Source: an uncultured Gammaproteobacteria bacterium | GTDB taxonomy: Bacteria > Patescibacteriota > Patescibacteriia > Magasanikbacterales > UBA922 | Direction of reading: 5' to 3' | Assembly (NCBI GenBank): GCA_964522405.1 | Contig: CAZFTR010000006.1 | Location: forward strand, 2,430-66,429 | Length of the DNA stretch: 64,000 bases | Shown: piece by piece, positions 6,201 to 31,392 of the stretch | How the letters are laid out: each line of letters begins with the position of its first letter | How positions within the stretch are numbered: position 1 is the first letter of the stretch | Position numbers and translations under genes: made by a program | Notes under the pieces: generated by a model | What the model saw: only the letters and a program-made list of their open reading frames with translations | Told to the model about the DNA's origin: nothing | Database searches by the model: none

Positions 6201-9200
6201 TTTGCAAGCGCAACAAGAATTACCTGAGGATTTAAGGTTGTTGGAGTCCATGGACGGATATATGTATGGTTTGCAATATTATAGAGATTGGTCACAAGCT
6301 AGACATGACTCTCAAGATGAAGATTTAACTCAAGATGAGAGAGATCAAGCTGCTCAGAGATTTGCAGATATGGATGCTGTGTTTACTGATCACAATTCAA
6401 ATGAAAGAAAAGCTTTTAATAGAGTGGTTGGCATTCAAAATGGTTTAAGTGATGAAATCAGAGGTTATGAAGATAGAAAAAGAGAGATTGATACTGAGAT
6501 GCAAGGATTGCAAGCTATAATAGATGATCCAAATGAATCAGATGAAAACAAGGCTACTGCTGCCCAAAGCATAGGTACTTTAAATGCTGAAAAAGCAGAT
6601 ATTGATACCAATCATGCAAGAGCAGAACGTAGACATGGTATGATAGCTGATGTGTTTTCTAATGATGATTTAGATACAGCACTAAATCAAACAATCACTG
6701 AAAAGATAGGGCAACTAGATGAAGCCATTGCAAAACAATTAGTTGATTTTGGTCCTGCCGGTAGAGCTGGAACCGAAAGAGAAATAGAAGATTTGCGTGC
6801 TGAACATACTGAACGGACGGCAGCAAAAAGAACTCAAGTCCAAGCTGCTCGCCAAAGCGCCAAAGCAGCAATCAGTGCTCAGATAGATGATCAACAAGCA
6901 GCACTCAAAAAAGTACAACAAGGCGTTGTCAAGACAATGACCGGTGTAACCTATGGTTCATTCTTACAAACCAAGGCAGAAGCGCAAATAGTAAGCGAAA
7001 TTCTTGATGCAGATGAAAAGAGATTGGTAGAAGGTCAACTTCAGAAGGAATATAATCTTGGTGCTTTGGTTGATGCCGCTGCTTCTCAAGACAATCGAGG
7101 AGATTGGAGTAAGAGTGTGCAAGCGGCTCGTGAAGAAGGAAAAGTAATCGCAGCTGAGATCGATAAAAAAAGAAAAATTGAAATTGGAAATTTTGATAGG
7201 CAGCTTAGCGGTTTACAAGATAAAAGAGGAGAACTGCAGAAGCAGGCTGATACTTATGGAGCTGCTTCTAGAATTGAAAAAGCAATGACCGGGCTTGATG
7301 CCAAAGCACAAGAATTGAGAGATCAGAAAGATGCGGTTGATGCTAGCGCTGACTCTGATCAAAATAAAAAGAAAAAGAAAGATGCTCTTGATAAGCAACT
7401 GGCTGCTCTGGCACAAAACAGACAAAAAATGGCTGATGATTTGAAGAAAGCCACAAAAGATCGAGATAAGCTTGCTGGTGTGGAAAAAGGAATGTCAGAC
7501 GATGAAAAGAAGACGAAGAGAGAAGAAGGTGAGGCTGCCATTAAGACACAATTAAATACTACTGATTCAGACATATTTACTCTTTCTTCAACTATAAAAG
7601 ATAAAGAAAAAGCTTTGGAAGAAACTGATACTTACTGGGCAGAATTGATGCGCAGAAAAAAACAAAATGCAAGAAAGGTAAAAGATGAACAAACCAGCCT
7701 CGATAAAAGGGCTAATCGATTGCGTTCTGGAGACACTGGTGCTGCCAATGAGATCATTGAATCTATTGAAACAGCTCTTAGTGAAGAACAAGCTAAACCT
7801 GTCGCAGCCAGAGATGAAGCAAAAATTGACAAACTAAAAGGTGATCTTACTTCCATGCGCAAGATTAAGTCCAAGATTGGAAGGGCAGGTCTGGCTTGGC
7901 GCTATGGTGTGGCCAAAGGTAAGCAGGCTGATGCTACTCGTGGTTATAAATATGCTCATAATCTCTTGCTTTCAGAAGCAGAACAGAGGGCAATTCATGA
8001 TGAAAGAGGACTTGATACACCGAAATCAACTCTTACTGAACTGATTGAGGAATATGGAAAGAGTTTTGGTGAGATGTCAGTTGATAGTTTTGTAGCCAAT
8101 GCCGGACCTATGCTAACTAAAATGCTCAAGAAAAATAAAGCAGGTACTATGACTGAGCAAGATCGAGCAGCTCTCATGGGACTTTTTAAGCGTGGGTTTG
8201 ATCGAGCTTGGATTGATGACGCTATTTATGCCATTATGGACAATGAAGAAGCCAAAGAATTAATTGGTGATGAGTTGGGATGGACAAATTCAAAGTATTC
8301 TGATGAAAAAGTAAGAGATATTCAAATGCTTTTTGCCACTGGAGCAAATGTTGATTTTGTAAAAGACAATGCTGTGGTAACTTCAATTTCAGATGTTCTT
8401 GAAAATGATCATGGAATTAGAAATACAGAAGAAGTGATGAAGATGATGAGCACAGGTGTTTATTTGGATAAATCAGGTGTGGATGTTAGTCAACAAGTAC
8501 ATGATAAAGTTCGTGAATCAATGGCGTCTACCAATACAAAATTCAGTAGTGAACAAGAACAGAATTTTGTAAATTTCTTTAAGCATCTAGTTAAGGGAGA
8601 TGAGCAGGCATTGCTGGACGTGCAATCTCAGAGAAATAAAATTGTTGGTGGTTGGATGAAAGAAATCAGAGCCAGACAATCAGAAATGCAATATTTAGGT
8701 AATCTGCGTCCGGAAGCCATTGCCAACGGCCACTATGAAAACGCCGGTTGGGCTCTGACCCGTGAAGTTGGTGGTGGTGAATCACTCTATGTAGCTCAGG
8801 GTTTGAGAAGCGCTAGAGCTCATGTGATGGGAGATGTGAGAAAATCAGATGTGCGAACTCGTGCTAAATCTCAGACTCATTCTTGGGCTGATCTGGATGA
8901 GAGAAATGGACAAGTAGTAACCCAGATCAGAGAAGGTCAATTTACAGATACTTTCAATGGTATTGATCCTAGAACTTTTAACAGTATTAACCCGCGTGCT
9001 CGTGTGCATATGATGGGTCTTTCCGGTAGTGATAAATACTCTGATTTTCGAGATGGATCTGATGGTTCATTTACAGCAGCTCGAATGACTGATAGTACCG
9101 GCGCGCTTACCAATGCCGGAAAAACTTGGTCTCAAGAACTTTCTCAGGATAGTGTGTATGGTAGTCATTTCAAAAAAGCCAAAACTAGAGATCGCCAACA

Positions 9201-9534
9201 GGAATTGATGTCAGCCGGTATTATGAATAGGCTCTATGCTCGTGAGATTCGTGGAAATACTCATGGATTCCTCATGCTTGCTGCAGAAGCTGCCGGTATG
9301 GATCCAACCCAGGCAGCGCGTGATGGTAAAATTAATTTTAAAATGTATAATCCCGCAGAAGGAAAAGAAATAAGATATCGAGATGTAAACAGATTGATCG
9401 ATGATTTCAATAGAGGAGATTGGGAAATGGATGCCAATGGAAGATTTAGTAGAAGTTCTAAACCTTCATCTCAATTGCAACATTTCACTCCGTCAAGTGG
9501 AAAGGCAGATGAGGATTATTATCTCGATGAATAA
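3208..9534 (+). CDS. Giant membrane protein: N-terminal TrbL/VirB6-like polytopic domain fused to ~1700-aa charged coiled-coil region
   Basis: 2108 aa; signal peptide plus about 6-7 TM helices in the first ~330 aa, then long E/K/R/Q/A-rich heptad-like sequence; genomic context with PrgI-like and VirB4. Confidence 0.55.
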   Translation: MRGSTRHTIMQIKTAVKKLLPSKLKRYQKIALFAFVLLGSLFFISSVAQAGQGPVTDLINGLISAVSWMLIVTARICIGFTIFFLRFFITLASYNDYINADIVKLGWIMVRDVANMGFVVAMLVIAFATILGIEQYEFKKGLVKVILAAVFINFSNLIAQVFIDAAHVFTITFLNAISVTAGGNLITMFQLDKMLDFASNKPPGELKFEVLGGSIVAFVFSFMAMAAMGAYVLVMMLRVVLLWALIILSPLAYIFAVLPKTEKYSQEWWKEFGEQVMVAPIMVFFLWLSFAALGSGQALEQINSSPGAVPLKIKTTTDYSVSLTKISTWENMANFLLAITFMYIGIQKVGESGAYGGKILQNTMSTAKKIGVIASGYATGRWLVGGAADVGKKGVKEGLYRLPLVGGEKWERYAKTFGHGIKGMYMGKGFEITEKGEQIQGDLREEQTLAKALKAGGSEALAGDIERLEAQQSAANINLEGQRTNLEAQEAAGDMVNAEKTRAGIAETERELETIEGHLATNKRVKERIDREGYTADDVDEIEQNIQDLQKQLKGQVGGRGGGRVSGLIGAMARANIKSQKRLAKTERQADERKQLLWKRTGSQAGGYLVGMGRVGDVYRGREAQDRVERGWLAAESMRSKAKDEEYETMGKMEVLAKPRLKYNVNTGEITYEDTKGTVAERIAEHEVGRDQYQDAIKKLQGEARLKIVADFDANMSKSNNISAEIDKLKKELENVDSPEFANKIKKRIEQLEQELSGVERGSEEGQKLTDEIKVFKGVRDSLAFAQAQKNIQDLEAQTTADGFDPSSEKGQEMLRELERLREEFSAEGGEQKIQKWESWKTDLDDGILHEERRREQNREITEQKREELKTVTDEDERARIIKMIERGEEHDSKSASIITDLKSRRSLLDDPDNLDLVEKEIDAAQRRFTDWVPADAEEAEAYRAERTEKEAELARLREEYAPFAEDDVRAKELQEQISQKEAQLNGIDINSDEGRARLQAQQELPEDLRLLESMDGYMYGLQYYRDWSQARHDSQDEDLTQDERDQAAQRFADMDAVFTDHNSNERKAFNRVVGIQNGLSDEIRGYEDRKREIDTEMQGLQAIIDDPNESDENKATAAQSIGTLNAEKADIDTNHARAERRHGMIADVFSNDDLDTALNQTITEKIGQLDEAIAKQLVDFGPAGRAGTEREIEDLRAEHTERTAAKRTQVQAARQSAKAAISAQIDDQQAALKKVQQGVVKTMTGVTYGSFLQTKAEAQIVSEILDADEKRLVEGQLQKEYNLGALVDAAASQDNRGDWSKSVQAAREEGKVIAAEIDKKRKIEIGNFDRQLSGLQDKRGELQKQADTYGAASRIEKAMTGLDAKAQELRDQKDAVDASADSDQNKKKKKDALDKQLAALAQNRQKMADDLKKATKDRDKLAGVEKGMSDDEKKTKREEGEAAIKTQLNTTDSDIFTLSSTIKDKEKALEETDTYWAELMRRKKQNARKVKDEQTSLDKRANRLRSGDTGAANEIIESIETALSEEQAKPVAARDEAKIDKLKGDLTSMRKIKSKIGRAGLAWRYGVAKGKQADATRGYKYAHNLLLSEAEQRAIHDERGLDTPKSTLTELIEEYGKSFGEMSVDSFVANAGPMLTKMLKKNKAGTMTEQDRAALMGLFKRGFDRAWIDDAIYAIMDNEEAKELIGDELGWTNSKYSDEKVRDIQMLFATGANVDFVKDNAVVTSISDVLENDHGIRNTEEVMKMMSTGVYLDKSGVDVSQQVHDKVRESMASTNTKFSSEQEQNFVNFFKHLVKGDEQALLDVQSQRNKIVGGWMKEIRARQSEMQYLGNLRPEAIANGHYENAGWALTREVGGGESLYVAQGLRSARAHVMGDVRKSDVRTRAKSQTHSWADLDERNGQVVTQIREGQFTDTFNGIDPRTFNSINPRARVHMMGLSGSDKYSDFRDGSDGSFTAARMTDSTGALTNAGKTWSQELSQDSVYGSHFKKAKTRDRQQELMSAGIMNRLYAREIRGNTHGFLMLAAEAAGMDPTQAARDGKINFKMYNPAEGKEIRYRDVNRLIDDFNRGDWEMDANGRFSRSSKPSSQLQHFTPSSGKADEDYYLDE

Positions 9535-9543
9535 AAAATAATT

Positions 9544-10737
9544 TTGGCGCTAATTAAAAATATGTTTTCATTGCCAACTATAATAATGCAACTTTATCCG
9601 GGTAAGACTGAAGAAGAGATTCAGGCTATTTCTGATGCTTGTCTTAGGGGTGGAGCAAATTATTATCACCGAACTTGGAAAGAAGTAAAAAAAGAAGATC
9701 TGGGCAAAGAAGAGGTTATTCTTAATTTGATTCGCACTATTCACACTTCTCAGCATTCATATTGGGGCGGGGTTGACGAAATTATGAGATCATTGGAAGA
9801 ATGGTCAGACGGAATAATTATTTTTGAAGGCCTAAACAAAGAACAAAATGAATTTTATCAGAGATTTTATTGTTTTATTGGATTTTTGAATTTTGCTTAT
9901 ATTGAATTTAAGAGAAAATTATTTTTGCTTGAATCTAGATTTCTTGTTTTGGCCTGTATCTGGGAAATTCCGGTCTATGTCAATGTACAACTTTATTTTT
10001 CCAGATATGCCTTTGTGGAAGGTATGAGAAATGATGCTATTCTCATGGCTGATTCTATTGAGAGAAATTGGGCGCCGGTAGGAGAAGAGGGTAGAGCGGA
10101 ATTAACTGTTGAAGAGTGGGTTAGGAAATTCAATGAAAAACCATTTACTAATTTTGGTGGTAGAATTGATGATTATTTTGTAGATAATTTGGAAGTAAAT
10201 AGATTTGATCAAGGAGTTCAAAATGTTTTGAGAAAAATCTTTACTCTTTATTGGGGGCTTAGATCCGGATCTGTCTGGAGAGAAATTTCAGAAGATTTGC
10301 ATATTGCCGGATATGAAAACAAAAAAGTGAGAGAAAATAAGACTGCAGATCAATATTACTTGCAAATGCTCCAAGAAGCTGATAAAGAAGGATTTCTTAT
10401 CTGGCTCACGAGTTATGATCATTTTGTAGATTGGGTACTTGCTGTTGGAAAAAGTGATGAGTTTATGAATCAATTATTTTATATTCTTACTCAGAAAGTT
10501 GATTTGGATGATGTTGAAGAATTAGGTTATTTTGTAGATTTGATGGAGGCTTTGCAAAAAAATGAATGGTCACTTGGTTCTGATTTGGTTTACTATGATG
10601 AGGAAACTTCAGGTTTTAGATGGAATCAAGACATAATTGAAGCTCTAAAAGAAGAGGTTGAGTATGTAAAATTATATGGAGAAAAACCAAGACCCCAAGT
10701 GTTAACTATGCCTGAGAAATTAGATATAAAAGAATAG
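9544..10737 (+). CDS. Hypothetical protein (T4SS-cluster associated)
   Basis: 397 aa ORF, coding-like composition, no recognised motif. Confidence 0.5.
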   Translation: MALIKNMFSLPTIIMQLYPGKTEEEIQAISDACLRGGANYYHRTWKEVKKEDLGKEEVILNLIRTIHTSQHSYWGGVDEIMRSLEEWSDGIIIFEGLNKEQNEFYQRFYCFIGFLNFAYIEFKRKLFLLESRFLVLACIWEIPVYVNVQLYFSRYAFVEGMRNDAILMADSIERNWAPVGEEGRAELTVEEWVRKFNEKPFTNFGGRIDDYFVDNLEVNRFDQGVQNVLRKIFTLYWGLRSGSVWREISEDLHIAGYENKKVRENKTADQYYLQMLQEADKEGFLIWLTSYDHFVDWVLAVGKSDEFMNQLFYILTQKVDLDDVEELGYFVDLMEALQKNEWSLGSDLVYYDEETSGFRWNQDIIEALKEEVEYVKLYGEKPRPQVLTMPEKLDIKE

Positions 10738-10743
10738 AAAATT

Positions 10744-12246
10744 ATGCCTCCAGCTGTTAAAAAACAGACTCAATCAGCCCAAGGTCCTGTTAATCAGGGC
10801 ATTTTGGTTAAAAAGGCAGACGGTAGTACAGTTCGAGTTTCTTTTGATGAATTTAAAAGACTCAGAGAAAACATTTCTAGGAAACAGCCGGCAGAACAGG
10901 TTGTAGAGCCACCGGCTATACCGAAAAAAAGATCTGAAAAAGTAGCAAAAAAAGTAAAAGATTTTGCAGAAAAAGAACAGATATCTTCTATAAAAGGTCA
11001 ACGCATTGCCAGGAAGAGACCTGGTCTTTTGCAAAAAAAGAGAGCAGTAGCTCCGCCGCAACCTGTTCAGAAAAAGATCGAAGATCAGGTTAAAACCAAG
11101 ATGCCTTTGTCTGATCCAAGAATAATTCGTGCTAGAAAGACCAAAACTGTAGTCAGCAAACCAAAAATTTCAGCTCCAAAATTGACAAAAAAAGATTCTC
11201 TACCTCTTTTGCATGAAAAACTTGAAGAGCAGGATCTGATTGAGAGGGATTTATCTGATATTACAACTCATGATCATATTGTTGACGAAGTTGTGCAAGA
11301 GTTTCCCATGTCAATTGCTCCTGAGCTTCAGATGCGCATGAGATCTCTTATTGTTTCTTTTTTAAGAGGAGTTCGAGATAAGCATCAGTTTCATGAATAT
11401 GCTATACAGGCTGCGGGGAGCGGTGGTATTGGTTTGACTGATGAACAAGCTTCTAGGTTGGTACTTGTTATAGAAAAAAATAGAAAAGAGTATGAAAGTG
11501 GAAAAATAGAAAAAACCAAGAGTCAAGCAAAAAAAGCAGTTTTGAGTAGTAGGCTCAAAGCTCGAGGAGTACCAGTTAAACCTGTTAGCGCTTATAAGCC
11601 AGAAACTAAAAAGATTCAAAAACAAAACCCATCAAAAATTCAAAAAGCTCTTGTCAAAGAACCAATAGATGATCTGGCAACCACAACTCCGCTAGTGGAT
11701 AGTTTTATTGATCAGGCAATTGCCAAGAAGCAGGCAGAAAAAGTTAATGTGGTTAAAAAGGAACCAACAATAGAAGAACAAAAGCCTGAAGCTAGAAATA
11801 TCGATTTAGTAGAAGCTGTAAAAAATATACAATCAAGACCGACTACACCGACCATAAAAACCAGTGTTGTCAATCAAAAGAAAACAAATAAGCTGGTACA
11901 TGATGTTAGTCATATAAGAACAGAGCATAAGACTGTCGGTCCTCAGGAAGAAATGTTGAGATATGCCAAAATTGATTTTAATAGATTAGCCAGTGACCCC
12001 GAGCATGCTGCCAGACGTTTGATTGCTAAGTTTAATGGTTGGAAAGAAGAGTCTTTTATGATGTATCTGCAAGCTAGAGCTGCATGGTTTAAAAGTCCTT
12101 TATACAAACAATTTCAAGACTCTGCGTTGAAGGCTATTAATAAACGTTTAACTATAAAAAAAACAGTTGAAGGTTCAAAAGATCTAGGATTGTCTTTGCC
12201 GGAATTTCTAGCTATTCTTGAGGTAAATAAAGCGCTGGCTTTATAA
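10744..12246 (+). CDS. Hypothetical lysine-rich basic protein (T4SS-cluster associated)
   Basis: 500 aa; long K/P/Q-rich basic low-complexity N-terminal two thirds, structured C-terminus. Confidence 0.5.
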   Translation: MPPAVKKQTQSAQGPVNQGILVKKADGSTVRVSFDEFKRLRENISRKQPAEQVVEPPAIPKKRSEKVAKKVKDFAEKEQISSIKGQRIARKRPGLLQKKRAVAPPQPVQKKIEDQVKTKMPLSDPRIIRARKTKTVVSKPKISAPKLTKKDSLPLLHEKLEEQDLIERDLSDITTHDHIVDEVVQEFPMSIAPELQMRMRSLIVSFLRGVRDKHQFHEYAIQAAGSGGIGLTDEQASRLVLVIEKNRKEYESGKIEKTKSQAKKAVLSSRLKARGVPVKPVSAYKPETKKIQKQNPSKIQKALVKEPIDDLATTTPLVDSFIDQAIAKKQAEKVNVVKKEPTIEEQKPEARNIDLVEAVKNIQSRPTTPTIKTSVVNQKKTNKLVHDVSHIRTEHKTVGPQEEMLRYAKIDFNRLASDPEHAARRLIAKFNGWKEESFMMYLQARAAWFKSPLYKQFQDSALKAINKRLTIKKTVEGSKDLGLSLPEFLAILEVNKALAL

Positions 12247-12314
12247 ATGAGAATAAGTTTATATTTTTTTAAGGAAATGTGTTTTTGGTATATTAAGTGT
12301 GATATAATGTAGGT

Positions 12315-12749
12315 ATGCAACAATTTGTTGTTCCACAATTTATCGATGTAGAAGATAAGATTTTTGGTCCTATTACCATACGACAGTTTATTATTTTATT
12401 GTTTGGTGGACTTTTGATTTTTTTGGCCTTTAGATATGGTGATTTATCTTTGTTTATAACTACAGCAGTTATTGTAGGTGGTCTGTCTCTTACATTTGCA
12501 TTTATAAAAGTGAATGGCCAAACTTTTCATTATTTTTTGCTCAATATTACTCAAACAGCCAAAAAACCATCTCTTAGAATTTGGAATAAAAATTATACCA
12601 AAAAAGAATTAGAGTTTTATAGAAAAGAAGCATCTGATTTTGAACCTATTGAACATATTGAAACCAAAGAAGTAAAAAGAGATAGAATTAGAGATTTGGC
12701 TTTACTTGTAAATACAGGAGGTTTTTACCGTCCAGACGAATATAGCTAG
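12315..12749 (+). CDS. PrgI/VirB3-like small membrane protein
   Basis: 144 aa with two adjacent TM helices, located immediately upstream of VirB4, as in Gram-positive-type T4SS; extended -10 (TGTGATATAAT) upstream. Confidence 0.45.
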   Translation: MQQFVVPQFIDVEDKIFGPITIRQFIILLFGGLLIFLAFRYGDLSLFITTAVIVGGLSLTFAFIKVNGQTFHYFLLNITQTAKKPSLRIWNKNYTKKELEFYRKEASDFEPIEHIETKEVKRDRIRDLALLVNTGGFYRPDEYS

Positions 12750-12753
12750 ATAT

Positions 12754-13446
12754 ATGAAGAACAAAAAAAACAAAAAACAAAAAACAAAAAAACCTTCAAC
12801 TCAGGTTCATTTGCCGATTGCAGAGGTAAAAGACGGTACTGTAGTCCTAAAAGACGGAACTTTGCGAGCTGTTTTGCTTGTTTCCAGTATAAATTTTGCT
12901 CTTAAGTCTGAAGATGAACAGAATGCAGTTATATCAGCTTATGTTGGTTTTTTGAATTCTATTGATTTTCCTTTACAGATTGTTGTTCAATCCAGAAAAT
13001 TACAAATACGACCTTATCTTGAACAATTAGATGAGTTGCAGAAAAAACAAAAAGACAATCAGCTTCTAAGAATGCAGATTGCAGATTATCGTTCATTTAT
13101 CAAGGAGTTGGTTGAAATGGGTCAGATCATGACTAAGAGATATTTTGTGGTGGTTCCTTATGATCCACTTTCAAATAGAAAAAAAAGTTTTTGGAATAGA
13201 TTCAAAGAAGTTGTGAAACCGATTATAAGTATTCGTTTAAAAGAGGAGAGATTTCAAGAGAGAAGAGAGGAGCTAGATTTGAGATTAAGACATGTTAAAA
13301 ATGGTTTATCAAGTATTGGTCTCCGAGTAGAGCAGTTGGATACTCAAACATTGATTGAATTATTTTATGCAACTTACAATCCCGATGTAGGGTTTTCAGA
13401 AACATTGGGAGATGTTGAAGATATAAATATTGAGCGCATGCTCTAA
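12754..13446 (+). CDS. virB4: VirB4/TrbE N-terminal domain (separated from ATPase domain by a single in-frame TAA)
   Basis: 230 aa; motif AEVKDGTVVLKDGTLRAVLLVSSINFALKSEDEQ typical of the VirB4 N-terminal domain; same reading frame as the downstream ORF. Confidence 0.55.
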   Translation: MKNKKNKKQKTKKPSTQVHLPIAEVKDGTVVLKDGTLRAVLLVSSINFALKSEDEQNAVISAYVGFLNSIDFPLQIVVQSRKLQIRPYLEQLDELQKKQKDNQLLRMQIADYRSFIKELVEMGQIMTKRYFVVVPYDPLSNRKKSFWNRFKEVVKPIISIRLKEERFQERREELDLRLRHVKNGLSSIGLRVEQLDTQTLIELFYATYNPDVGFSETLGDVEDINIERML

Positions 13447-13455
13447 AGAATAATT

Positions 13456-15336
13456 ATGGCATTTAAACCTGTAAGTTTTGGACAAGAAGCACCTGAAAAA
13501 AGGCCGTCATTTTTGCGTAAGAAAAAAAGCGAAAAAGAGGTTGAAGAAACTCTGGTAAGTTTGGAAGAAGAGCGATTGTACAGAGAGGGGACAGTGGCTA
13601 TTCGTGATTTGATTGCTCCTTCTGCTTTCAAGGTTGAATCTACTTTTATCCAGCTTGGAAATACATTTTTGCGCACTATTTTTGTAGTAACCTATCCGAG
13701 ATATATTGCAGTTGGTTGGAATACTCCTATTTTGAATTTGAATATTACCATGGATATCAGCATGTTTTTTTATCCTGTGAAATCTACTATTATCCTCAAA
13801 CAACTCAAGAAAAAAGTTGGAGCTATAGAAGCACAGATTTCTGCAGATGCAGAAAAAGGTGCTCCTCGAGATCCGATTCGTGAAACAGCTCTGAGAGATA
13901 TTGAACAGCTTAGAGATGATCTTACTCAGGGAGTTGAACATTTTTTCCAGTACGCTTTTTATGTGACCATTTATTCACAGGACAAAGATGAACTAGACAA
14001 GACTACCGAGGACATTGAAAATATTTTTGGTTCAAAATTAATTTATACCAAAAATGTGCTTTTTCAAGCTGAACAAGGTTTTACTTCTACACTTCCACTC
14101 GGCATAGATGAGTTAAGCATTGCTTTTAACATGAATTCTTCTCCGATAGCAGCTTCATTTCCTTTTGTTTCGTCTGAGTTGACTAGTGATAATGGAATTT
14201 TATATGGTATCAATCGACATAATAATAGTTTAATTTTGTTTGACAGATTTAGTTTGCAAAATGGAAATATGGTAGTTTTTGCTACTGCCGGTGCTGGTAA
14301 ATCTTATGCGATTAAGCTCGAAGTGCTTAGAAGTTTGATGTTTGGAACAGATATCATTGTCATAGACCCGGAGATGGAATACTTGCATCTTGCAGAAGCT
14401 GTTGGTGGTACTTATATAAATATTTCTCTAGGTTCAGATAGCAAGGTGAATCCTTTTGATTTGCCGACCAAGCCGATCGGTGGTGAATCTGCCGAAGATG
14501 TTATCCGAAAAGCTATTAGTACAGTCAAGGGTTTGCTCAAAATTATGTTTTCCGGTTTTACTCCTCAGGAAGATTCTATTTTGGATACAGCACTGAAGGA
14601 AACTTATGCCAAAAAAGACATTACACCATCATCAGATTTTTCAAATGCAGAACCTCCAATTATGCAGGATTTATTGGATATTTTGGAGGGTATGGAAGGT
14701 GCTGAAACCATGGTCCTCAAATTACAAAAATACACAGAAGGTACCTTTTCAGGATTATTTAATTCTCCCACCAATGTTGATATGAACAATCAGCTGGTAG
14801 TTTTCAGTGTGCGTGACTTAGAAGATGAGCTTAGGCCATTGGCAATCTATACTTTGATAAATTATATTTGGGCTTTGGTTCGGTCAGAACTAAAGAAAAG
14901 AATACTGGTAATCGATGAGGCTTGGTGGTTGATGAGACATGAAGATAGTGCCAAATTTATTCATGCCTTGGTCAAACGTTGTCGAAAATACTACCTGGGT
15001 GTTACTACTATTACCCAGGACGTTAATGATTTCTTATTATCACCTTATGGACAAGCAATTATTACCAATTCAGCTGCTCAGCTTTTGATGCGTCAATCTC
15101 CAGCATCAGTTGATTTGGTCAAAAAAGTATTTATGTTGACAGAAGGAGAGAAATATCTTTTACTTGAAGGGGTAGAAGGTGAAGGAATCTTTTTTGCTGG
15201 GAACAAACATGCAGCCATAAAAGTAGTTGCTTCTTATACAGAACATCAACTAATCACATCTGACCCTAAACAGCTTTTAGAGATAGAGCGTTCAAAAGCA
15301 GAATTTAATAAGCAATTCAAAGATCAACAAATTTAA
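13456..15336 (+). CDS. virB4: VirB4/TrbE/CagE-family type IV secretion ATPase (C-terminal ATPase portion)
   Basis: 626 aa; Walker A VVFATAGAGKSYAIK, Walker B LVIDEAWW, conserved VirB4 C-terminal motifs. Confidence 0.8.
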   Translation: MAFKPVSFGQEAPEKRPSFLRKKKSEKEVEETLVSLEEERLYREGTVAIRDLIAPSAFKVESTFIQLGNTFLRTIFVVTYPRYIAVGWNTPILNLNITMDISMFFYPVKSTIILKQLKKKVGAIEAQISADAEKGAPRDPIRETALRDIEQLRDDLTQGVEHFFQYAFYVTIYSQDKDELDKTTEDIENIFGSKLIYTKNVLFQAEQGFTSTLPLGIDELSIAFNMNSSPIAASFPFVSSELTSDNGILYGINRHNNSLILFDRFSLQNGNMVVFATAGAGKSYAIKLEVLRSLMFGTDIIVIDPEMEYLHLAEAVGGTYINISLGSDSKVNPFDLPTKPIGGESAEDVIRKAISTVKGLLKIMFSGFTPQEDSILDTALKETYAKKDITPSSDFSNAEPPIMQDLLDILEGMEGAETMVLKLQKYTEGTFSGLFNSPTNVDMNNQLVVFSVRDLEDELRPLAIYTLINYIWALVRSELKKRILVIDEAWWLMRHEDSAKFIHALVKRCRKYYLGVTTITQDVNDFLLSPYGQAIITNSAAQLLMRQSPASVDLVKKVFMLTEGEKYLLLEGVEGEGIFFAGNKHAAIKVVASYTEHQLITSDPKQLLEIERSKAEFNKQFKDQQI

Positions 15337-15974: not shown

Positions 15975-16700
15975 ATGAATTTAAAAAAATATTTTAAAAC
16001 ATTTTTGTATTTATCAAAAGAGGCTTTGTTTCCTCTTTTTTGTATCTCTTGTTCAGCTGAGGGTGATATTTTATGCCAGACTTGCTACATAGCCCTTGAG
16101 ACATATGCTGTTTTTGCCTGTCCTGTTTGTGGTCTCAATAATAATACAGGAGAGGTTTGTAAAAAGTGCTTGTCAGATTCATTTCTACAAAAACATCTTG
16201 CTCTTGGTAGATTTTCAGAAGATTCAATAATACAAAAATTATTGTATGAATATAAGTATAATTATGTCTTGGATATTTTGAAAATTTTTGAGAAATTAAT
16301 TGATAATTTTATTGATAGATATAAGAGTTTTTTTCTTGAAATTGATTTTATTGTTTCAGTTCCACTTCATAGGAGGCGTTTTGCAGAAAGGGGATTTAAT
16401 CAAGCAGATGACCTTGCTTTGGTTTTAGCTTCTAAGATTGATCGGCCTGTCTTGGATTCAGTCTTAAAGAGGATTGTAAATACTTCTCAACAAGCCAAAT
16501 TAACCAAGACCGAAAGACAGAAAAATATAGATAGCGCTTTTGTTATAAACCAAAAAAATTCTCTAAATTTAGCCAATAAATCATTATTGTTAGTTGATGA
16601 TGTTTTAACCACTGGCTCAACTATGCAAGCTTGTGCCAGGCAGTTCAAGGATAATTTCAAGGCAGTTAAGATACGGGCATTTACCTTGGCTAGAGGTTGA
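15975..16700 (+). CDS. comFC: ComF family protein (ComFC-like phosphoribosyltransferase)
   Basis: 241 aa; N-terminal CxxC...CxxC zinc finger and C-terminal PRTase motif LLLVDDVLTTGSTM. Confidence 0.7.
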   Translation: MNLKKYFKTFLYLSKEALFPLFCISCSAEGDILCQTCYIALETYAVFACPVCGLNNNTGEVCKKCLSDSFLQKHLALGRFSEDSIIQKLLYEYKYNYVLDILKIFEKLIDNFIDRYKSFFLEIDFIVSVPLHRRRFAERGFNQADDLALVLASKIDRPVLDSVLKRIVNTSQQAKLTKTERQKNIDSAFVINQKNSLNLANKSLLLVDDVLTTGSTMQACARQFKDNFKAVKIRAFTLARG

Positions 16701-22458: not shown

Positions 22459-22862
22459 GTGGACCTCCTTTCTCCTTGTTTTGTCCACGCTTGTTCACGC
22501 CATCATCTGACCGTCTTCGAAGTTGAGGTCGGTCGCGAAGAGCGCGAAGAAGCAGGTGGCGAACATCATGCCTGTGGCCCAGCTGTCCGGAGTCAGCACC
22601 GAGGCGCAGAAACCGAAGGACAGCATCAAGTGCATCCAGCTCCTGTTCCTAACCAGGATCCAGGCCAGCATAATGCCGAGGAAGATGACCACGACGCTAA
22701 TCAGGATCTGTCCGATGGGCGGATTGCCGGTTGCTGCCACGATGAGCTCGGGCAGGATCAGGCCGATGAGGGCCATGACGAACGCTCCAGCCTGAGCGTT
22801 GGCATTATCAGAGTCCATTTTCCCTCCCAGGATCTCTCATTGACCCTTAAAGAACCCTAGCA
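22459..22862. other. High-GC island 2 (compositionally foreign segment)
   Basis: ~60% GC block between nrnA and smc; one ORF with strong RBS. Confidence 0.6.
22495..22818 (-). CDS. Small polytopic membrane protein (3-4 TM), GC-rich foreign ORF
   Basis: 107 aa hydrophobic; GGGAGGG Shine-Dalgarno 4-5 nt upstream of ATG on minus strand. Confidence 0.45.
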   Translation of the reverse strand: MDSDNANAQAGAFVMALIGLILPELIVAATGNPPIGQILISVVVIFLGIMLAWILVRNRSWMHLMLSFGFCASVLTPDSWATGMMFATCFFALFATDLNFEDGQMMA

Positions 22863-25982: not shown

Positions 25983-26166
25983 TTTAGTTTTTCTTAATGT
26001 TTTTCGTTGACAATAATTAGTAATGTTATATACTTTAAATATTGGTAAGTTTGAAGCTCAGTAATCGAACTTTGTATATAAAAATCCCCAAAAGGGGATT
26101 TTTATATACTTTGAAACAATTAAGATTTTTTTAATGGTGTTTATTATAAAATATTATCGGTGGAAA

Positions 26167-26240
26167 GGGCGGAGGCTGGCTGGGCCAAATTCAAACTTAC
26201 CATTTTGAATATTGGAGTTCGATTCTCCCTCCGTCCACCA
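26167..26240 (+). tRNA. tRNA-like element with aberrant arms (anticodon region TAC in an 8-nt loop; possibly tRNA-Val(UAC)-derived or pseudo-tRNA), CCA encoded
   Basis: Acceptor GGGCGGA/TCCGTCC, canonical T-loop GGAGTTCGATTCTCC, 3' ACCA; but 3-nt D-loop and 8-nt anticodon loop cttaccat; followed by terminator. Confidence 0.4.
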
Positions 26241-26370
26241 CTGAATTTGACAAAAAAAATTATAAATGATAATTTAATACTTATATGAATCACCAATGTA
26301 TTATTAAAACTGCTAAGAAGACAAAGAAGATCTCGCTCGCGGGTTAGTGTTTTGTTGTATACATTTACAT

Positions 26371-26396
26371 GTCCCGCAGAAAGCGGGATTTTTTAT
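26371..26396 (+). terminator. Intrinsic terminator (tcccgc-agaaa-gcggga + T7)
   Basis: Seen directly downstream of tRNA-like element. Confidence 0.5.
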
Positions 26397-26431
26397 TGTA
26401 GAAGTGAATTTAATAAAGGATGTGAGCACGA

Positions 26432-28069
26432 GTGGCGTGCTTGTATCCCCTTAGAGTTCATTTCACCGTAAAGAGTAGGGAGAGTTCCTTGAGAAGACAT
26501 CCAGGAAGGCGGAAAAGGGTAGTCGCCAAGTTCGGCGGCAGCTCGGTGGCTTCGGCAGTCATGCTGCTCACCATCTCCGAGATCGTAAAAGACCGGCGAC
26601 GGCGGCAGCGCGATTGGATCGTGGTCTCGGCTGCGGGCAAGCGCAGGCAGGTCAAAGGTGATGTAAAAGTCACTGATCTGCTGATCATCTTGCAGAACTT
26701 GATGGAGGACAGCACGCCCAATGACCACCAGGTCAAAGCGTCAGACTTCCAGACGGTCTGCAAGTGGGCGGGCGGCGAGAACAACCTGAGCGTGGACACA
26801 CTCTGGGAATTCATTGCCGAGCATCATCGCCAGATCGCCAGTCATGACGAGATCAACTTCGACATCGAGCCCATCCTCGGCAAGATCAAGAACGAGATCG
26901 TTACCAAGAAGGGTCGAGCATTCACTGTCAGCCGCGGCGAGTACCTTATGGCGTGCATCGTGGCTCAAGTGCTCGGTTACGAGTTCGTTGACGCGGCTCA
27001 GTTGGTCAAGTTCGACGTCGACCAGGCTGGCAACGTTCGGCTCAACGAGCACGAGACCAAGAAGCAGATCCAGGCTCACTGTCTGGGACACAAGTGCGTC
27101 ATCCCCGGCTTCTACGGCTCGAGCATCGAGAACCAGGATCAGATTCTGGTCTTCTCTCGTGGTGGTTCGGACATCTCGGGGGCGCTGATCGCTGCAGCAC
27201 TTTCGACCGACGTCTACGAGAACTGGACCGATGTGCCTGGCGTGGCCATGGCTGATCCTCGGTTCTTCGGAAAGAACGGCCGACGCTGGGTCAAGTGGAT
27301 CTCGGAGATCAGCTACCGAGAGCTTCGTGAAGCAGTTTACGCCCAGGTCCTCCACGAGGACGCCGTTCAGCCGGTTCGCAAGCACGGGATCCCCATCAAC
27401 ATCCGTTGCACTCTGCGTCCTGATCACCCCGGAACCATGGTGGTGCGAGATCGTCGACCTAACGAACGCCTGGTGCAGATCATCGCGGGCCGTAGTGGCT
27501 TCGTGAGTCTGTGCATTGGTCGGGACGAGAGCAACGACGAGATCGGCTACGCAGCTACCATCCTCGAGGTGCTCAAGGCTGAGGGGATTTGGTTCCACCA
27601 CGTGGCGACCAGTATCGATTCGATCAGTGTCATCATCCCTGCCGAGGCACTGAGCAATGGCAAGCTTCGGGACGCGATTCAGGCCATTCGAGATCAGGTC
27701 GAGCCTGACCGTCTGGTTCCGCTCGACGATTTGGCGCTGATCTGCCTGGTGGGCGACCAGGTGGGTGTCAACTCCAACAAGGTCCTGGCCTATGCTCACG
27801 CCGGGCTCTGGAACGCTGGCATCGAGGGGGTGCGTTTGGTCGAGATGGGGTCGTCTCAGCAGAACGTTATCGTCGGAGTCAACAAGTCTGAGCTCGAGGA
27901 CGCCATACGTGCTCTGCACGACGTGTTCGCCAGCTCTACGTTCTCGGGCAAGCTGCTGGCGCTTGGACGTGCCCGGCTTCGGCTGATGCGTCCGGGAACT
28001 GTCCTCACTCGAGCGGGCAACAAGCTCGGACGGTTGGTGCGAATGGCCAAGTTGCGCCGACAGGCCTGA
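26432..28069 (+). CDS. lysC: Aspartate kinase (amino-acid kinase domain + two ACT domains) with arginine-rich N- and C-terminal extensions
   Basis: 545 aa; KFGGSSV, WIVVSAAG, SRGGSDISGALIAAALSTDVYENWTDVPGVAMADPRF, C-terminal ACT repeats; true start may be TTG at 26489 preceded by AGGGAG. Confidence 0.7.
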   Translation: MACLYPLRVHFTVKSRESSLRRHPGRRKRVVAKFGGSSVASAVMLLTISEIVKDRRRRQRDWIVVSAAGKRRQVKGDVKVTDLLIILQNLMEDSTPNDHQVKASDFQTVCKWAGGENNLSVDTLWEFIAEHHRQIASHDEINFDIEPILGKIKNEIVTKKGRAFTVSRGEYLMACIVAQVLGYEFVDAAQLVKFDVDQAGNVRLNEHETKKQIQAHCLGHKCVIPGFYGSSIENQDQILVFSRGGSDISGALIAAALSTDVYENWTDVPGVAMADPRFFGKNGRRWVKWISEISYRELREAVYAQVLHEDAVQPVRKHGIPINIRCTLRPDHPGTMVVRDRRPNERLVQIIAGRSGFVSLCIGRDESNDEIGYAATILEVLKAEGIWFHHVATSIDSISVIIPAEALSNGKLRDAIQAIRDQVEPDRLVPLDDLALICLVGDQVGVNSNKVLAYAHAGLWNAGIEGVRLVEMGSSQQNVIVGVNKSELEDAIRALHDVFASSTFSGKLLALGRARLRLMRPGTVLTRAGNKLGRLVRMAKLRRQA

Positions 28070-28258
28070 TCTACAATTCTACTCGTTACGCTGCGGACTA
28101 GACGCTGACCAGTAGGATTCGCTGCGCAAGCAGTATCGGCCCCAAGCTTACGGGGGAGCTGGGGAAGGCGGGCGCGAATGTTACTCCGCAGACATTCGCA
28201 AGCCCTTTCTAGAAATTTTTCATAAGTTTTTATAAAGGGCTTAATCGGAGGATGCCAA

Positions 28259-28537
28259 ATGGCAGAAGAAGAAAAGAAGAAAGAGTTCGCAGTCGTCTCA
28301 GTGATGATCTGCACTGATCAGGTGGTCTTGTCGCTTCGTGATGGCGACTCATGCGGCGGGTTCCCGCCCTGCGACGCCAAGATTGCGAAGGGCGACTGGA
28401 TCGAGTCGGACGGCGTTGTCTCGTTCGAGGGTCAGGAGGTTCAGATCCAGGACGGACTCGAGGGGATCGCTGAGATCTACATCATCGGTGGAAGGGTGCG
28501 CCAGAACCGAGGTCGGATCACGACCATGGTTCCTTAG
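28259..28537 (+). CDS. Small hypothetical protein (92 aa), GC-rich foreign ORF
   Basis: GGAGG 7 nt upstream of ATG; no recognised family (contains SCGGFPPCD). Confidence 0.4.
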   Translation: MAEEEKKKEFAVVSVMICTDQVVLSLRDGDSCGGFPPCDAKIAKGDWIESDGVVSFEGQEVQIQDGLEGIAEIYIIGGRVRQNRGRITTMVP

Positions 28538-28627
28538 TCTGCATTGGCTACACCAACATCCACTCCGGGGCGACATTGCGCTCTCCTCGGGGTGGAAAGG
28601 AAAAATTTTATGCTATAATAAAAATAT

Positions 28628-29854
28628 ATGAATCAAGAATTTAAAATAGGTAATCATAAAGCAACAGATATAGTAGAAAAATTTGGAACGCCTACCTATG
28701 TTTATGATTTGCAGGTTGTCCGAGATAGGGTAGAGGACTTGCAAAAAAGAATTGGTGCTTATCCTAAAACTGAGTTTCTTTATGCTGTAAAAGCAAATTA
28801 TAATCCTTTTTTGGTGGGTGAGATTATAAATTTGGGTTGTGGAATTGATGCAGTTTCAGCAGAAGAGGTCTTGCTTGCTATTAAATGCGGAGCTGATAAA
28901 TCCAAAATCATGTTCACTGGAAACAATATGACAGATGAGGAGATGAGAAGTGTTCATGAGCTTGGAGTTTTACTAAATATTGGGTCACTTTCGCGTTTAG
29001 AGAAATACGGAAAGGAGTTTCCAGGAAGCAAGGTAAGCATTAGATTTAATCCAAATATTGGAATTGCCTCTCATGAAAGCAATATTACCGGTGGGCCTGA
29101 TTCGAAATTCGGTATCTCATTTAAAAAAGTAGAAGAAGTAAAAGAAATCGCAAACAAGTATAACTTGAACATAATTGGTGTTCATCAACATATTGGTTCT
29201 GGATGGTTACGTTTGCGCGAACCAATTCTTGCTCTTGATGTTATTCTGGAGATTGCTGAGCAATTTTCAAATCTTGAATTTGTCGATGTTGGTGGTGGTT
29301 TTGGTATTCCCTATAAGCCAGAGCAAAATCGTCTAGACATTGGGCTTTTGGGAGAACAAATCAATAAACGCTTTTCAGCGTTTTGTCAGAAATATGGTCG
29401 CGAAATCACACTTAGGTTTGAGCCTGGTAGATATGTAGTGGCTGAATCAGGTCATTTACTAACTAGAGTAAATACAATAAAAGAATCAATTAGCAGAAAA
29501 ATCATTGTTGGAACAGATACCGGAATGCATCATCTGGTGCGAGTAGCCATGTACGATTCATATCATCCCATAGTTAATGCCAGTAATCTGGATGGTATGA
29601 TGCAAGAGTATGATGTCACTGGAAATATTTGTGAATGTGCTGATTTTTTTGCAAGAAACCGAATGCTTCCTGAAATCCGAGAGGGGGATCTTCTTAGTAT
29701 AGATATTGCCGGAGCTTATGGAATGGCCATGGCATATAATTATCAGTTTAGAGGGTTGCCAGCAGAAATAATGATAGATGGAGATCAATTGGTTGAGATC
29801 AGAAAAAGAGAAACTTTTGATGACCTATTTTCTAGATACAATTATGAAACTTGA
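28628..29854 (+). CDS. lysA: Diaminopimelate decarboxylase (PLP-dependent, fold-type III)
   Basis: 408 aa; YAVKANYNP PLP-lysine motif, GGGFGIPY, Orn/DAP decarboxylase architecture. Confidence 0.85.
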   Translation: MNQEFKIGNHKATDIVEKFGTPTYVYDLQVVRDRVEDLQKRIGAYPKTEFLYAVKANYNPFLVGEIINLGCGIDAVSAEEVLLAIKCGADKSKIMFTGNNMTDEEMRSVHELGVLLNIGSLSRLEKYGKEFPGSKVSIRFNPNIGIASHESNITGGPDSKFGISFKKVEEVKEIANKYNLNIIGVHQHIGSGWLRLREPILALDVILEIAEQFSNLEFVDVGGGFGIPYKPEQNRLDIGLLGEQINKRFSAFCQKYGREITLRFEPGRYVVAESGHLLTRVNTIKESISRKIIVGTDTGMHHLVRVAMYDSYHPIVNASNLDGMMQEYDVTGNICECADFFARNRMLPEIREGDLLSIDIAGAYGMAMAYNYQFRGLPAEIMIDGDQLVEIRKRETFDDLFSRYNYET

Positions 29855-30638
29855 ATTCACAAAATTTCATGGTACTGGAAATGACATGATAATGATCGAT
29901 AATCTTCTTGGTGCAATTTCTCTTTCTAAGGAGCAAATAAAAAATATATGTGATAGACATTTTGGTGTTGGGGCTGATGGTTTAATTTTGGTTGAAAGTA
30001 GTAAAAAAGGCGCAGATTGTTTTATGAATTACTATAATGGCGATGGTACACCTGTTGAAATGTGTGGAAATGGCGCCAGATGTACAGCTGGTTTTTTTAG
30101 AAAAATTTCAGGTAATTTAAAAGAAGTATTGAAAATTGAGACCAGATCCGGGATAAAAGATATTTTAGTTAATAATGAAAATACTTTTACAGTAAATCTG
30201 GGTAAACCACTTTTTCAAAGTGAGAATTTTCCTTCAAGACCAACCAAGCTTTTTAGTTTTAATTTCCATTTTGCTTCAATGGGAAATCCCCATGCTGTGG
30301 CTTTTGTACCAAAAGTAGACAATATTCCACTTGCCTCAGTAGGTCCAAATGTTGAAACTCATGAATATTTTCCAAAGGGTATAAATGTTGAATTTGTAGA
30401 GGTTGTAGATAAAGATCAGATAAAAATGATAGTTTGGGAAAGAGGATCAGGTGTAACTCTTGCTTGTGGAACCGGAGCCTGCGCAGCATTCGCAGTTAGT
30501 AGAAAAATTCATAATATTGAGTCTACGGCAGAGGTTTTACTTCCTGGAGGGTCTATAAACATTTCGGAAAATGAAAATGGTGAGGTTAGTATGAGAGGAG
30601 AGGTTGAGGAGGTGTATTCTGGATTTATTGAGGTCTAA
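29844..30638 (+). CDS. dapF: Diaminopimelate epimerase
   Basis: Start moved to ATG 29844 (MKLEFTKFHGTGNDMIMID); catalytic Cys motifs MCGNGARC and ACGTGACAA; ORF-track start 29778 overlaps lysA by 77 nt. Confidence 0.85.
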   Translation: MKLEFTKFHGTGNDMIMIDNLLGAISLSKEQIKNICDRHFGVGADGLILVESSKKGADCFMNYYNGDGTPVEMCGNGARCTAGFFRKISGNLKEVLKIETRSGIKDILVNNENTFTVNLGKPLFQSENFPSRPTKLFSFNFHFASMGNPHAVAFVPKVDNIPLASVGPNVETHEYFPKGINVEFVEVVDKDQIKMIVWERGSGVTLACGTGACAAFAVSRKIHNIESTAEVLLPGGSINISENENGEVSMRGEVEEVYSGFIEV

Positions 30639-30659: not shown

Positions 30660-30688
30660 TTGACAAAAAAAAGCATTTTTGCTATAAT
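30660..30688 (+). promoter_or_regulatory. Consensus sigma70-type promoter for rpsP (TTGACA-17-TATAAT)
   Basis: Exact consensus hexamers with 17-nt spacer ~85 nt upstream of rpsP start. Confidence 0.5.
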
Positions 30689-30771: not shown

Positions 30772-31392
30772 ATGTTGGTAATTCGCCTTCAAAGAATTGG
30801 AAAGAAGAAGCGACCAAGCTATCGTTTTGTGATTTCAGAAAAAACTCGTGATCCACAAGCCAAAAGCCTTGAAATTTTAGGTCATTATGATCCTATTCAA
30901 GATCCAAAAGTACTTGAGATCAAGAAAGATAGAATCGAGTTTTGGCTATCACAAGGTGCTACACTTTCTGATACTGTCCATAATATCCTTGTTAAAGAGG
31001 GTGTGATTGAAGGACAAAAACGCAGATCAGTAAATATTTCAAAAAAAAGACAGGTCAAGCTAGATGAAAAGAAATCAGCTGAAGAAGAAAAAGCAAAAGA
31101 AGCTAAAGCTGCAGCTGAGCAAGCAAAAGAAGAAGAAAAAGCCAAAGCTGCAGAAGAGGCAGCAAAAGCAAAAGAAGAAGCTGAAAAACCTGCAGAGCCA
31201 GAAGTAAAAGAAGAAACCCCTGCAGAAGAACTAAAAGCTGAAGAAAAAGTAGAAGAAAAAGTAGAAGAAACTCCAGAGCCGACAGTTGAAGAAAAACCTG
31301 CAGAAGAAGAAAAGAAAGAAGAGGCTCTTGTAGAGGAGTCTAAGGCTGAGGAAGTAAAAGAAGAGCCAAAAGTAGAAGAATCAAAAGAGTAA
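30772..31392 (+). CDS. rpsP: 30S ribosomal protein S16 with long E/K/A-rich low-complexity C-terminal extension
   Basis: N-terminus MLVIRLQRIGKKKRPSYRFVISEKTRDP...GHYDP matches bS16; ~120-aa repetitive tail. Confidence 0.85.
   Translation: MLVIRLQRIGKKKRPSYRFVISEKTRDPQAKSLEILGHYDPIQDPKVLEIKKDRIEFWLSQGATLSDTVHNILVKEGVIEGQKRRSVNISKKRQVKLDEKKSAEEEKAKEAKAAAEQAKEEEKAKAAEEAAKAKEEAEKPAEPEVKEETPAEELKAEEKVEEKVEETPEPTVEEKPAEEEKKEEALVEESKAEEVKEEPKVEESKE

Follow-up and report, generated by a model that had tools for sequence, protein, structure and literature searches.

Leader-peptide attenuators are exemplified by trpL, thrL, and hisL of Escherichia coli, in which a short open reading frame (ORF) carries a run of codons for the end product, a terminator and an antiterminator are mutually exclusive, and the stop codon lets a terminating ribosome block the antiterminator. 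In Thermus thermophilus, a leader peptide with tandem lysines serves as the control of the lysine (alpha-aminoadipate) cluster. For lysC of Bacillota and Gammaproteobacteria, the lysine riboswitch (L box) provides lysine-dependent premature termination before the aspartokinase gene. Among the aspartokinases themselves, the PRK09034 type, represented by the Clostridium acetobutylicum structure 3TVI and presumably also by Bacillus subtilis YclM/AKIII, combines an amino-acid-kinase domain with two ACT domains and carries the motifs KFGGSS, SRGEY, RGGSD, and WTDVxG..DPR in this order. Acquired genomic islands, finally, are marked by a sharp compositional break, atypical codon usage, and atypical translation signals; their amelioration has been modelled (Lawrence and Ochman, 1997, as cited in PMC12455944). 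All of these systems bear on the locus described here, which lies in a 64-kb stretch of DNA (64,000 nucleotides, referred to below as the window). It consists of an aspartokinase gene (AK), two tandem hairpins, and a small ORF of 92 codons (ORF92), placed between a candidate lysine-codon leader and the lysine biosynthesis genes lysA and dapF. The leader shares the cited traits of trpL, thrL, and hisL, follows the logic and occupies the place of the L box, and would control an enzyme with the domain plan and motif order of the PRK09034 type, and the gene block behind it shows the same three compositional hallmarks as an acquired island.

Overall, the locus presents a divergent aspartokinase under a leader-peptide attenuator, together with an unexplained and potentially important compositional phenomenon. 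It is rather likely that the AK, its 3' hairpins, and ORF92 (hereafter the block) are a long-standing part of a lysine-responsive operon in a clade of small, AT-rich, Patescibacteria-like genomes and not a recent insertion; the origin of the block would be old, by transfer from a GC-rich donor that uses Shine-Dalgarno (SD) sequences. An earlier reading of the window from its letters alone (the sequence-only reading) had instead proposed that a foreign gene was acquired and inserted beside its native pathway partners. Its link to lysine and diaminopimelate (DAP) metabolism proved real, for upstream of the block there is an attenuator whose leader contains lysine codons, with the following parts:

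26247..26275, + strand, putative leader promoter, with a -35 box TTGACA at 26247-26252 and an extended -10 box TGaTAATTT at 26267-26275
26285..26347, + strand, leader ORF of 20 codons, MNHQCIIKTAKKTKKISLAG, with its stop codon at 26345-26347
26315-26329, + strand, regulatory Lys codons AAG AAG ACA AAG AAG within the leader ORF
26330-26336, + strand, segment 1 (AUCUCGC), directly after the Lys codons
26339-26343, + strand, segment 2 (GCGGG), in the last codons of the leader ORF
26371..26395, + strand, intrinsic terminator found by a terminator scan, composed of segment 3 (GUCCCGC), a loop, segment 4 (GCGGGAU), and six U residues

The promoter ends 9 nt before the leader ATG. Its TTGAC and TGnTA are invariant columns in a five-locus alignment, and it was missed by a generic promoter scan because its -10 hexamer agrees with the consensus at three of six positions. 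Promoter, KKxKK leader ORF, and terminator precede the AK block in five distinct loci, namely the window and the related loci L080/L085, L077/L078, L004, and L003 (listed below). The leader ORFs span 18-26 codons and use AAG for lysine, whereas native genes favour AAA by about 4:1. The leader core motif has a single occurrence in the window, where chance would give 0.17, and among 95 fetched loci it is confined to six of the clade.

The predicted RNA structures are consistent with this arrangement. Segment 3 is able to pair with segment 2 instead of segment 4, which would form an antiterminator. Folds were computed per sequence (n = 5), since the MAFFT alignment has L077 one column out of register; they give -10.6 to -13.7 kcal/mol for the 3:4 terminator helix and -12.6 to -17.3 kcal/mol for the 2:3 antiterminator helix, and the free RNA folds into a nested structure of 1:4 plus 2:3. 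Between loci, segments 2 and 3 covary (G-C to A-U, U-A to C-G), the changes in segment 3 being accommodated by the invariant segment 4 through G-U pairs; L003 shows joint changes in segments 1, 3, and 4. All relatives with the attenuator have terminator hairpins equivalent to that of the window. In the four close loci, segment 2 is formed by the last two to three leader codons, so a terminating ribosome would occlude it. The lysine riboswitch model RF00168 has no match in the window at its gathering threshold, nor at E values up to 1 in 25983-28700, and the element matches no Rfam family. In the literature searched, neither this attenuator nor genes of Patescibacteria that stay GC-rich are described. 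Taken from sequence comparison and folding, the element appears to be a ribosome-mediated attenuator of classical geometry that would sense lysine.

In such a mechanism, transcription would begin at the conserved extended -10 promoter, and the 20-codon leader ORF would be translated first. With plentiful Lys-tRNA, the ribosome would reach the leader stop codon and cover segments 1 and 2; the 3:4 terminator would then form and transcription would end before the AK. With scarce Lys-tRNA, the ribosome would stall at AAG AAG xxx AAG AAG and cover segment 1, allowing 2:3 pairing that leaves segment 4 unpaired, so that the polymerase would read into the AK and ORF92. Read-through would probably continue into lysA-dapF as a common transcript. 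Lysine starvation would thus induce the AK.

The genes and elements behind the leader are as follows:

26489..28069, + strand, AK, 526 aa from TTG 26489, GC 0.59, GC at third codon positions (GC3) 0.75
28174..28242, + strand, tandem hairpins 3' of the AK stop codon, ending 4 nt before the SD of ORF92
28174-28199, + strand, hairpin A, GCGAAUGUU...GACAUUCGC, found as an inverted repeat
28200-28242, + strand, hairpin B, long and AT-rich
28259..28537, + strand, ORF92, a small protein of 92 aa predicted to be all-beta, GC3 0.73, SD GGAGG at 28247-28251
28628..29854, + strand, lysA (diaminopimelate decarboxylase), TIGR01048 at 361 bits, above the curated cut-off, native GC3 of 0.26
29844..30638, + strand, dapF (diaminopimelate epimerase), TIGR00652 at 266 bits, above the curated cut-off, native GC3 of 0.21

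The sequence-only reading took this AK to be the sole aspartokinase in the window, which it is, and Pfam, NCBIfam, and structural matches identify the protein as an aspartate kinase. Pfam recognizes AA_kinase (E 9e-27, residues 28-325) and ACT_9 (E 9e-10), with ACT_7 at 26.1 bits, slightly below its cut-off of 27; the order is that of an AA_kinase domain followed by two ACT domains. The NCBIfam models PRK09034 (333.5 bits over residues 31-501) and TIGR00657 (163.5 bits) stay below their curated cut-offs of 434 and 208.7, respectively, and the AK is therefore a divergent member, not a standard equivalog. The best solved structure is 3TVI (E 4e-77), which aligns end to end. The catalytic motifs KFGGSS, SRGEY, FSRGGSD, and WTDVPGV..ADPR are intact and aligned with 3TVI, as is WTDVPGVAMADPR, the stretch for the D-P-R motif; the patterns sought at the nucleotide and aspartate sites were K-x-G-G-S/T (N-terminal), S/T-x-G-E, R-G-G-S-D, and D-P-R. 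In some relatives the RGGSD loop is altered (SGGTD in L004, RSGSD in L080). The AK can be described as a lineage-specific, fast-evolving offshoot of the monofunctional PRK09034/3TVI-type aspartokinases, and judged by its motifs the window copy most likely still phosphorylates aspartate.

Both ends of the protein had been described as carrying atypical basic extensions. The longest ORF begins with GTG at 26432 (26432-28069, 545 aa), and TTG 26489, preceded by the SD AGGGAGAG at 26477-26484, is the likely start. With this start, the N-terminal extension shrinks to about 10 residues (MRRHPGRRKR) and is mostly an artifact of ORF calling. The Arg-rich C-terminal tail of about 45 residues (482-526, 27932-28066) does exist in frame; it is found in no relative, is specific to this genome, and is probably read-through into GC-rich sequence. 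A function of this tail as a type IV secretion signal, considered in view of a PrgI/VirB4-like cluster in the window, was rejected because no relative has the tail.

ORF92, which the sequence-only reading correctly described as small and GC-rich, has no match in Pfam, NCBIfam, or PHROG. Its AF2 model (pLDDT 69.5) has no significant match among PDB folds (best E 0.25). A homologue of 104 aa lies between the AK and lysA in L080, with 31-34% identity end to end and a Smith-Waterman z of 8.1; the small ORF of L004 is a marginal third member (z 3.0). The question whether ORF92 goes with the AK in other genomes can be answered yes for L080 and probably so for L004. Among 5.8 billion proteins, the family has just two members. 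A second small ORF (sORF1), upstream of the AK, is common to L077 and L080 and is missing from the window. The hairpins are more widely kept: both are present in six of six loci (the window, L077, L004, L079, L081, and L080), first a GC-rich stem of 9-10 bp and then a long AT-rich one. Their stems vary in sequence between loci while pairing is retained, and neither matches an Rfam family.

The case for long residence rests on the relatives. The first loci were reached through lysA relatives at 63-69% identity, which come from related genomes that are small and AT-rich; other searches supplied the rest of the following set:

L004 (closed 1.23 Mb chromosome): tgt, AK with GC3 0.47, probable small ORF, lysA-dapF
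L003: queA, truncated AK of 296 aa with GC3 0.46, lysA
L077/L078 and L079: SMC ... AK with GC3 0.65 ... rpsP; attenuator and AK kept, no lysA-dapF before rpsP
L080/L085: SMC, sORF1, AK with GC3 0.75, 104-aa ORF, lysA
L081 (1.5 kb contig from the window's own sample): AK copy with GC3 0.65 and AT-rich edges, no neighbouring genes

Six related lineages carry a GC-rich AK, and the corresponding position is shown in L003, L004, L077/L078, L079, and L080/L085. The AKs are 25-48% identical to each other, and the lysA orthologues of L003, L004, and L080 are 66-70% identical. Six AKs, those of the window and five relatives, have derived characters in common: inserted residues follow the TDLL helix, a single residue is inserted in the last ACT domain, and an AQxLH motif is present. 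A distance tree places these six together, nested within the PRK09034 type, with 100% bootstrap for the L004/L077/L079 subgroup. Between L077 and L079, the closest pair, residual synonymous identity is detectable in the AK (z 4.3) and in the native gene for ribosomal protein S16 (z 4.1), a parallel signal that is consistent with co-divergence. As a side observation, the L003 AK (1097-1987) consists of a kinase domain only, without ACT domains, and may be decaying or of separate origin.

Searches for a source of the gene were extensive. In an exhaustive scan of 1.84 billion representatives, nothing closer to the AK was detected, nor any subfamily member in GC-rich surroundings, and a word-based search of 5.8 billion proteins likewise found no closer homologue; the best full-length identity outside identical copies is about 41-42%. 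The donor candidates P0292, P0295, P0304, P0261, and others, which stood out by local identity or unusual length, turned out to be canonical AKs, fragments, or fusions without the indels of the clade. In a metagenome scan with a two-sequence AK alignment, 13 canonical AKs were recovered, and L085 was the one clade locus gained. A GC-rich donor lineage is not visible. The sequence-only reading had named placement of this copy within its own lineage as evidence against foreign origin, and this is essentially the outcome, since the nearest AKs by indels and synteny all come from AT-rich, small genomes of the clade.

The composition that gave rise to the idea of a foreign gene is itself confirmed. 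The window has about 35% GC and the block 55-63% (about 60% overall), with sharp edges at ~26,420 and ~28,600. GC3 is 0.75 in the AK and 0.73 in ORF92 vs 0.16-0.36 in 46 native genes, and the base composition of the block departs from that of native genes at first, second, and third codon positions alike. Its choice of Lys codons is different, too. An SD-like sequence (duplex energy <= -6 kcal/mol) precedes one of 46 native genes of the window and five of six GC-rich ORFs, including strong SDs in the AK and ORF92. The contrast between GC-rich genes with an SD and native genes without one is repeated in every relative; the latter include the ribosomal proteins S16, L10, and L7/L12, a pattern seen in the window, L003, L004, L077, and L080. 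In the related loci, native neighbours mostly have GC3 of ~0.17-0.37, and the clade AKs are alike in GC1 (0.59-0.65) and GC2 (0.40-0.46). A few native genes (12315, 17823, 28628) have a perfect TGnTATAAT 6-8 nt before the start, which suggests leaderless mRNAs; in general, leaderless promoters at native genes are weakly enriched (10 of 47 vs 5.6 +/- 2.2 in shuffles).

The two most direct explanations of such a pattern can be set aside with differing firmness. That GC-rich foreign reads were joined into an AT-rich contig is almost certainly wrong. The change in composition is sharp and one Logan contig begins exactly at the left edge of the block; against this, two Logan assemblies, made independently from two runs, match the window at 100% identity (26420-28646 and 26720-30046) and span the right junction, which shows that the block is no assembly artifact. 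The AT/GC/AT architecture is also repeated by five other lineages, one of them in the closed chromosome and several in duplicate assemblies. A single recent horizontal transfer from a GC-rich donor, placing the AK and ORF92 beside native lysA-dapF as the sequence-only reading supposed, is very improbable. The sharp edges, the GC3 contrast, the strong SDs, and the lack of amelioration would all fit such an event, but at least five other lineages, with lysA identities of only 66-70%, have orthologous blocks in the corresponding place, and these relatives share the derived indels (five of their AKs), the ORF92 homologue (L080), the 3' hairpins, and the upstream attenuator. No donor-like protein exceeds ~42% full-length identity. 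Of the marks of a recent island, the block shows atypical composition and codon usage with sharp boundaries; the corresponding locus of related genomes is not empty, no integrase or transposase, no flanking direct repeats, and no insertion at a tRNA 3' end were found, and neither was a close homologue in a plausible donor. A 22-nt imperfect inverted repeat, the only repeat at the block edges (p ~0.002 in the window alone), is absent from four relatives and was taken as chance.

What the relatives do not explain is why the block has stayed GC-rich. Four-fold degenerate sites are 61-74% GC in five of seven AK copies vs ~20-37% in lysA. When four-fold sites at positions with the same amino acid are compared between relatives, their similarity is about what composition alone predicts, for the AK as for lysA; these sites are hence saturated, and the high GC is not a fading ancestral signal. 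The GC content of the block is thus either actively maintained in situ by a gene-specific force or repeatedly re-seeded from an unsampled GC-rich pool. Two other causes were tried and rejected. Avoidance of lysine ('cognate bias') agrees with the Lys-poor AKs (K/(K+R) 0.23-0.37) and leaves the four-fold GC unaccounted for, and a mutation bias linked to transcription is unlikely with AT-rich lysA-dapF directly downstream on the same strand.

Re-seeding would mean that each lineage separately and fairly recently obtained [sORF1]-AK-ORF92 from unsampled GC-rich, SD-using donors or a mobile pool, with every new copy supplanting the previous one at the same operon position. Such recurrent like-for-like replacement is rather unlikely, although it accounts for several observations: each copy has the appearance of a gene at equilibrium in a genome of 52-63% GC, the GC3 of the window and L080 copies shows no amelioration, SD sequences are retained, and the spread of AK GC3 (0.75 in the window and L080, 0.65 in L081, L077, and L079, 0.47 in L004, and 0.46 in L003) is as expected from differing residence times. 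In addition, GC-rich, SD-led orphan ORFs occur in relatives (L004 13324-14787; L003 6676-7539 and 4735-5286), and the 487-aa ORF of L004 and the 287-aa ORF of L003 occupy the same slot after a C39-like peptidase gene without detectable similarity to each other, suggesting hot-spot turnover at fixed sites. However, the exhaustive search gave no subfamily member in a GC-rich context, all flanks being AT-rich, and a foreign donor would lack the flank homology on which replacement at the exact site depends. Neither integrase nor repeats nor att-like sites are conserved at the block edges, and the parallel synonymous similarity of L077 and L079 in the AK and S16 also speaks against separate arrivals.

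Maintenance in situ would lead to a broader, tentative idea, which we regard as less probable than not: the lineage may hold two heritable classes of genes, most of them AT-rich and SD-less, and a minority, including the AK block, GC-rich, SD-led, fast-evolving, and at an equilibrium of their own across deep divergence. If true, this would need a gene-specific force favouring GC, for example, GC-biased gene conversion that goes with repeated recombination or uptake of DNA at these loci, or selection linked to SD-dependent translation. As a separate observation, the window contains four further short GC-rich ORFs with sharp edges and GC3 of 0.79-0.90 (1193-1486, 22495-22818, 48425-48877, and 51742-52152, all on the - strand), making five GC-rich blocks in 64 kb with that of the AK. 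A strong SD was scanned in three of the four, while GGAGGA stands immediately before the start codon of 48425-48877; PG_binding_1 repeats occur in 51742-52152, and the other three are orphans. Nearly all other GC-rich ORFs in the window and the relatives are orphans.

Returning to the long-standing operon, several points weigh against it. Monophyly of the six AKs has a bootstrap of only 48-52%, and their grouping could be an artifact of long-branch attraction. In percent identity, Clostridia-type AKs (38-42%) are as near to the window AK as its nearest clade member is (41%), and the L003 AK, at 296 aa, has no clade insertion and is placed elsewhere in the tree. With four-fold sites saturated, vertical inheritance with neutral synonymous sites cannot explain a GC3 of 0.75. 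The attenuator rests on five sequences and folding predictions, and since its leader ORF has no SD, leaderless or SD-independent translation must be assumed. A plausible extended -10 box of lysA makes co-regulation of lysA-dapF uncertain. Finally, asd, dapA, and dapB are absent from the 64-kb window, and L077 and L079 hold an AK with no lysA-dapF beside it, which makes the part that the AK plays in metabolism uncertain.

The last two observations would also suit a role of the AK other than pathway entry. In its explicit form, the AK-like protein would no longer be the entry enzyme of the DAP/lysine branch; the operon would mainly turn scavenged DAP into lysine through dapF and lysA, and the AK-like protein and its small partner ORFs would serve lysine starvation in another way, e.g., with another substrate or in regulation. 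This is rather unlikely. The AK evolves much faster than its neighbours, and faster even than its own 3' non-coding hairpins; the RGGSD loop is substituted in some members, the scores lie under the curated equivalog cut-offs, and the ACT domains are weakly recognizable. The window copy, in contrast, has all canonical nucleotide- and aspartate-site motifs together with the end-to-end 3TVI alignment, and the negative result for asd, dapA, and dapB covers the 64-kb window only.

Downstream of the block, the sequence-only reading of lysA and dapF stands: both are AT-rich, native, and immediately adjacent, with an overlap of 11 nt when dapF starts at ATG 29844, the start of the family match and of the L004 orthologue (56% identical). 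The extended -10 box of lysA, TGcTATAAT at 28611-28619, lies 8 nt before the lysA ATG, and lysA may have a promoter of its own. The next strong promoter downstream of dapF is that of rpsP (30660-30688); between the attenuator and this promoter, the scan gave no other terminator or consensus promoter on the + strand. The start of the leader ORF (TATATGAATCACCAATGTA, 26282-26300) resembles that of lysA (TATATGAATCAAGAATTTA, 28625-28643) at 16 of 19 positions, and a similar likeness was judged by eye in L004 and L080; it could be due to chance in AT-rich sequence or to a common need of SD-less initiation. S16 (30772-31392) has a C-terminal tail of ~120 residues rich in Lys, Glu, and Ala.

Other features of the neighbourhood deserve mention. 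A tRNA-like element is present in the window (26167-26241, + strand), ~180 nt upstream of the block with promoter, leader, and terminator in between, and in L077 (~2540-2618). It is not called by ARAGORN and reaches only 21.6 bits (E 0.43) with the Rfam tRNA-Sec model. Its acceptor stem includes a G-U pair, its T-arm reads GGAGUUCGAUUCUCC, it has a 3' CCA, and an 8-nt loop CUUACCAU takes the place of the anticodon loop; in L077 the element is conserved, with the UUACCA loop unchanged and compensatory changes in four pairs. At 26043-26055, 13 nt are perfectly complementary to its anticodon arm. Farther upstream, a cluster resembling conjugation or type IV secretion genes (3208-15336) encodes a 2108-aa protein without a Pfam match, a PrgI-family protein (12315-12749), and a TraG/VirB4-like ATPase (13456-15336), and is followed by a ComF-like gene (15975-16700). 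Gene content and order look Patescibacteria-like, with the PrgI/VirB4-like cluster, ComF, DUF4012, SMC, rpsP followed by a KH-domain gene, and few metabolic genes. Therefore, the Gammaproteobacteria label carried by L003, L004, and L005 may be wrong.

These findings have implications for both genome analysis and regulation. The locus is a cautionary case in which a textbook compositional 'foreign island' appears to be a conserved, natively regulated component of an operon, and composition alone would misdate the acquisition event. If two gene classes do exist, composition-based detection of horizontal transfer would be systematically misled in this lineage. As a leader-peptide attenuator that senses lysine in a Patescibacteria-like lineage, the element is a well-supported candidate, and such a device would imply coupled transcription and translation as well as regulated amino-acid metabolism in organisms that are usually seen as minimal and host-dependent. 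Moreover, a single operon that joins a GC-rich, SD-led AK to AT-rich lysA offers a natural system for the long-standing question of what sets bacterial GC content, be it mutation bias, biased gene conversion, or selection.

Compared with the systems from which it borrows, the locus departs in specific ways. Unlike other PRK09034-type aspartokinases, to which it is only 38-42% identical, the window AK scores under the curated cut-offs, carries an insertion of 20-30 aa after the first helices, a changed C-terminal ACT motif, and the Arg-rich tail of ~45 aa, evolves very fast within its clade, and has small partner ORFs alongside. Unlike acquired islands, the block keeps its position across deeply diverged relatives, has saturated synonymous sites yet is unameliorated in most lineages, lacks mobility genes and conserved flanking repeats, and is wired into a native regulatory leader. 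Unlike trpL, thrL, and hisL, that leader carries Lys codons upstream of an aspartokinase(-lysA-dapF) in a Patescibacteria-like lineage; its segment 1 resembles segment 3 and its segment 2 resembles segment 4, hence the nested structure of the free RNA; and it has no SD, a start ~9 nt after the -10 box, and no Rfam family. Unlike the L box, it has no aptamer at this locus, and lysine would instead be sensed through Lys-tRNA-dependent translation of the leader.

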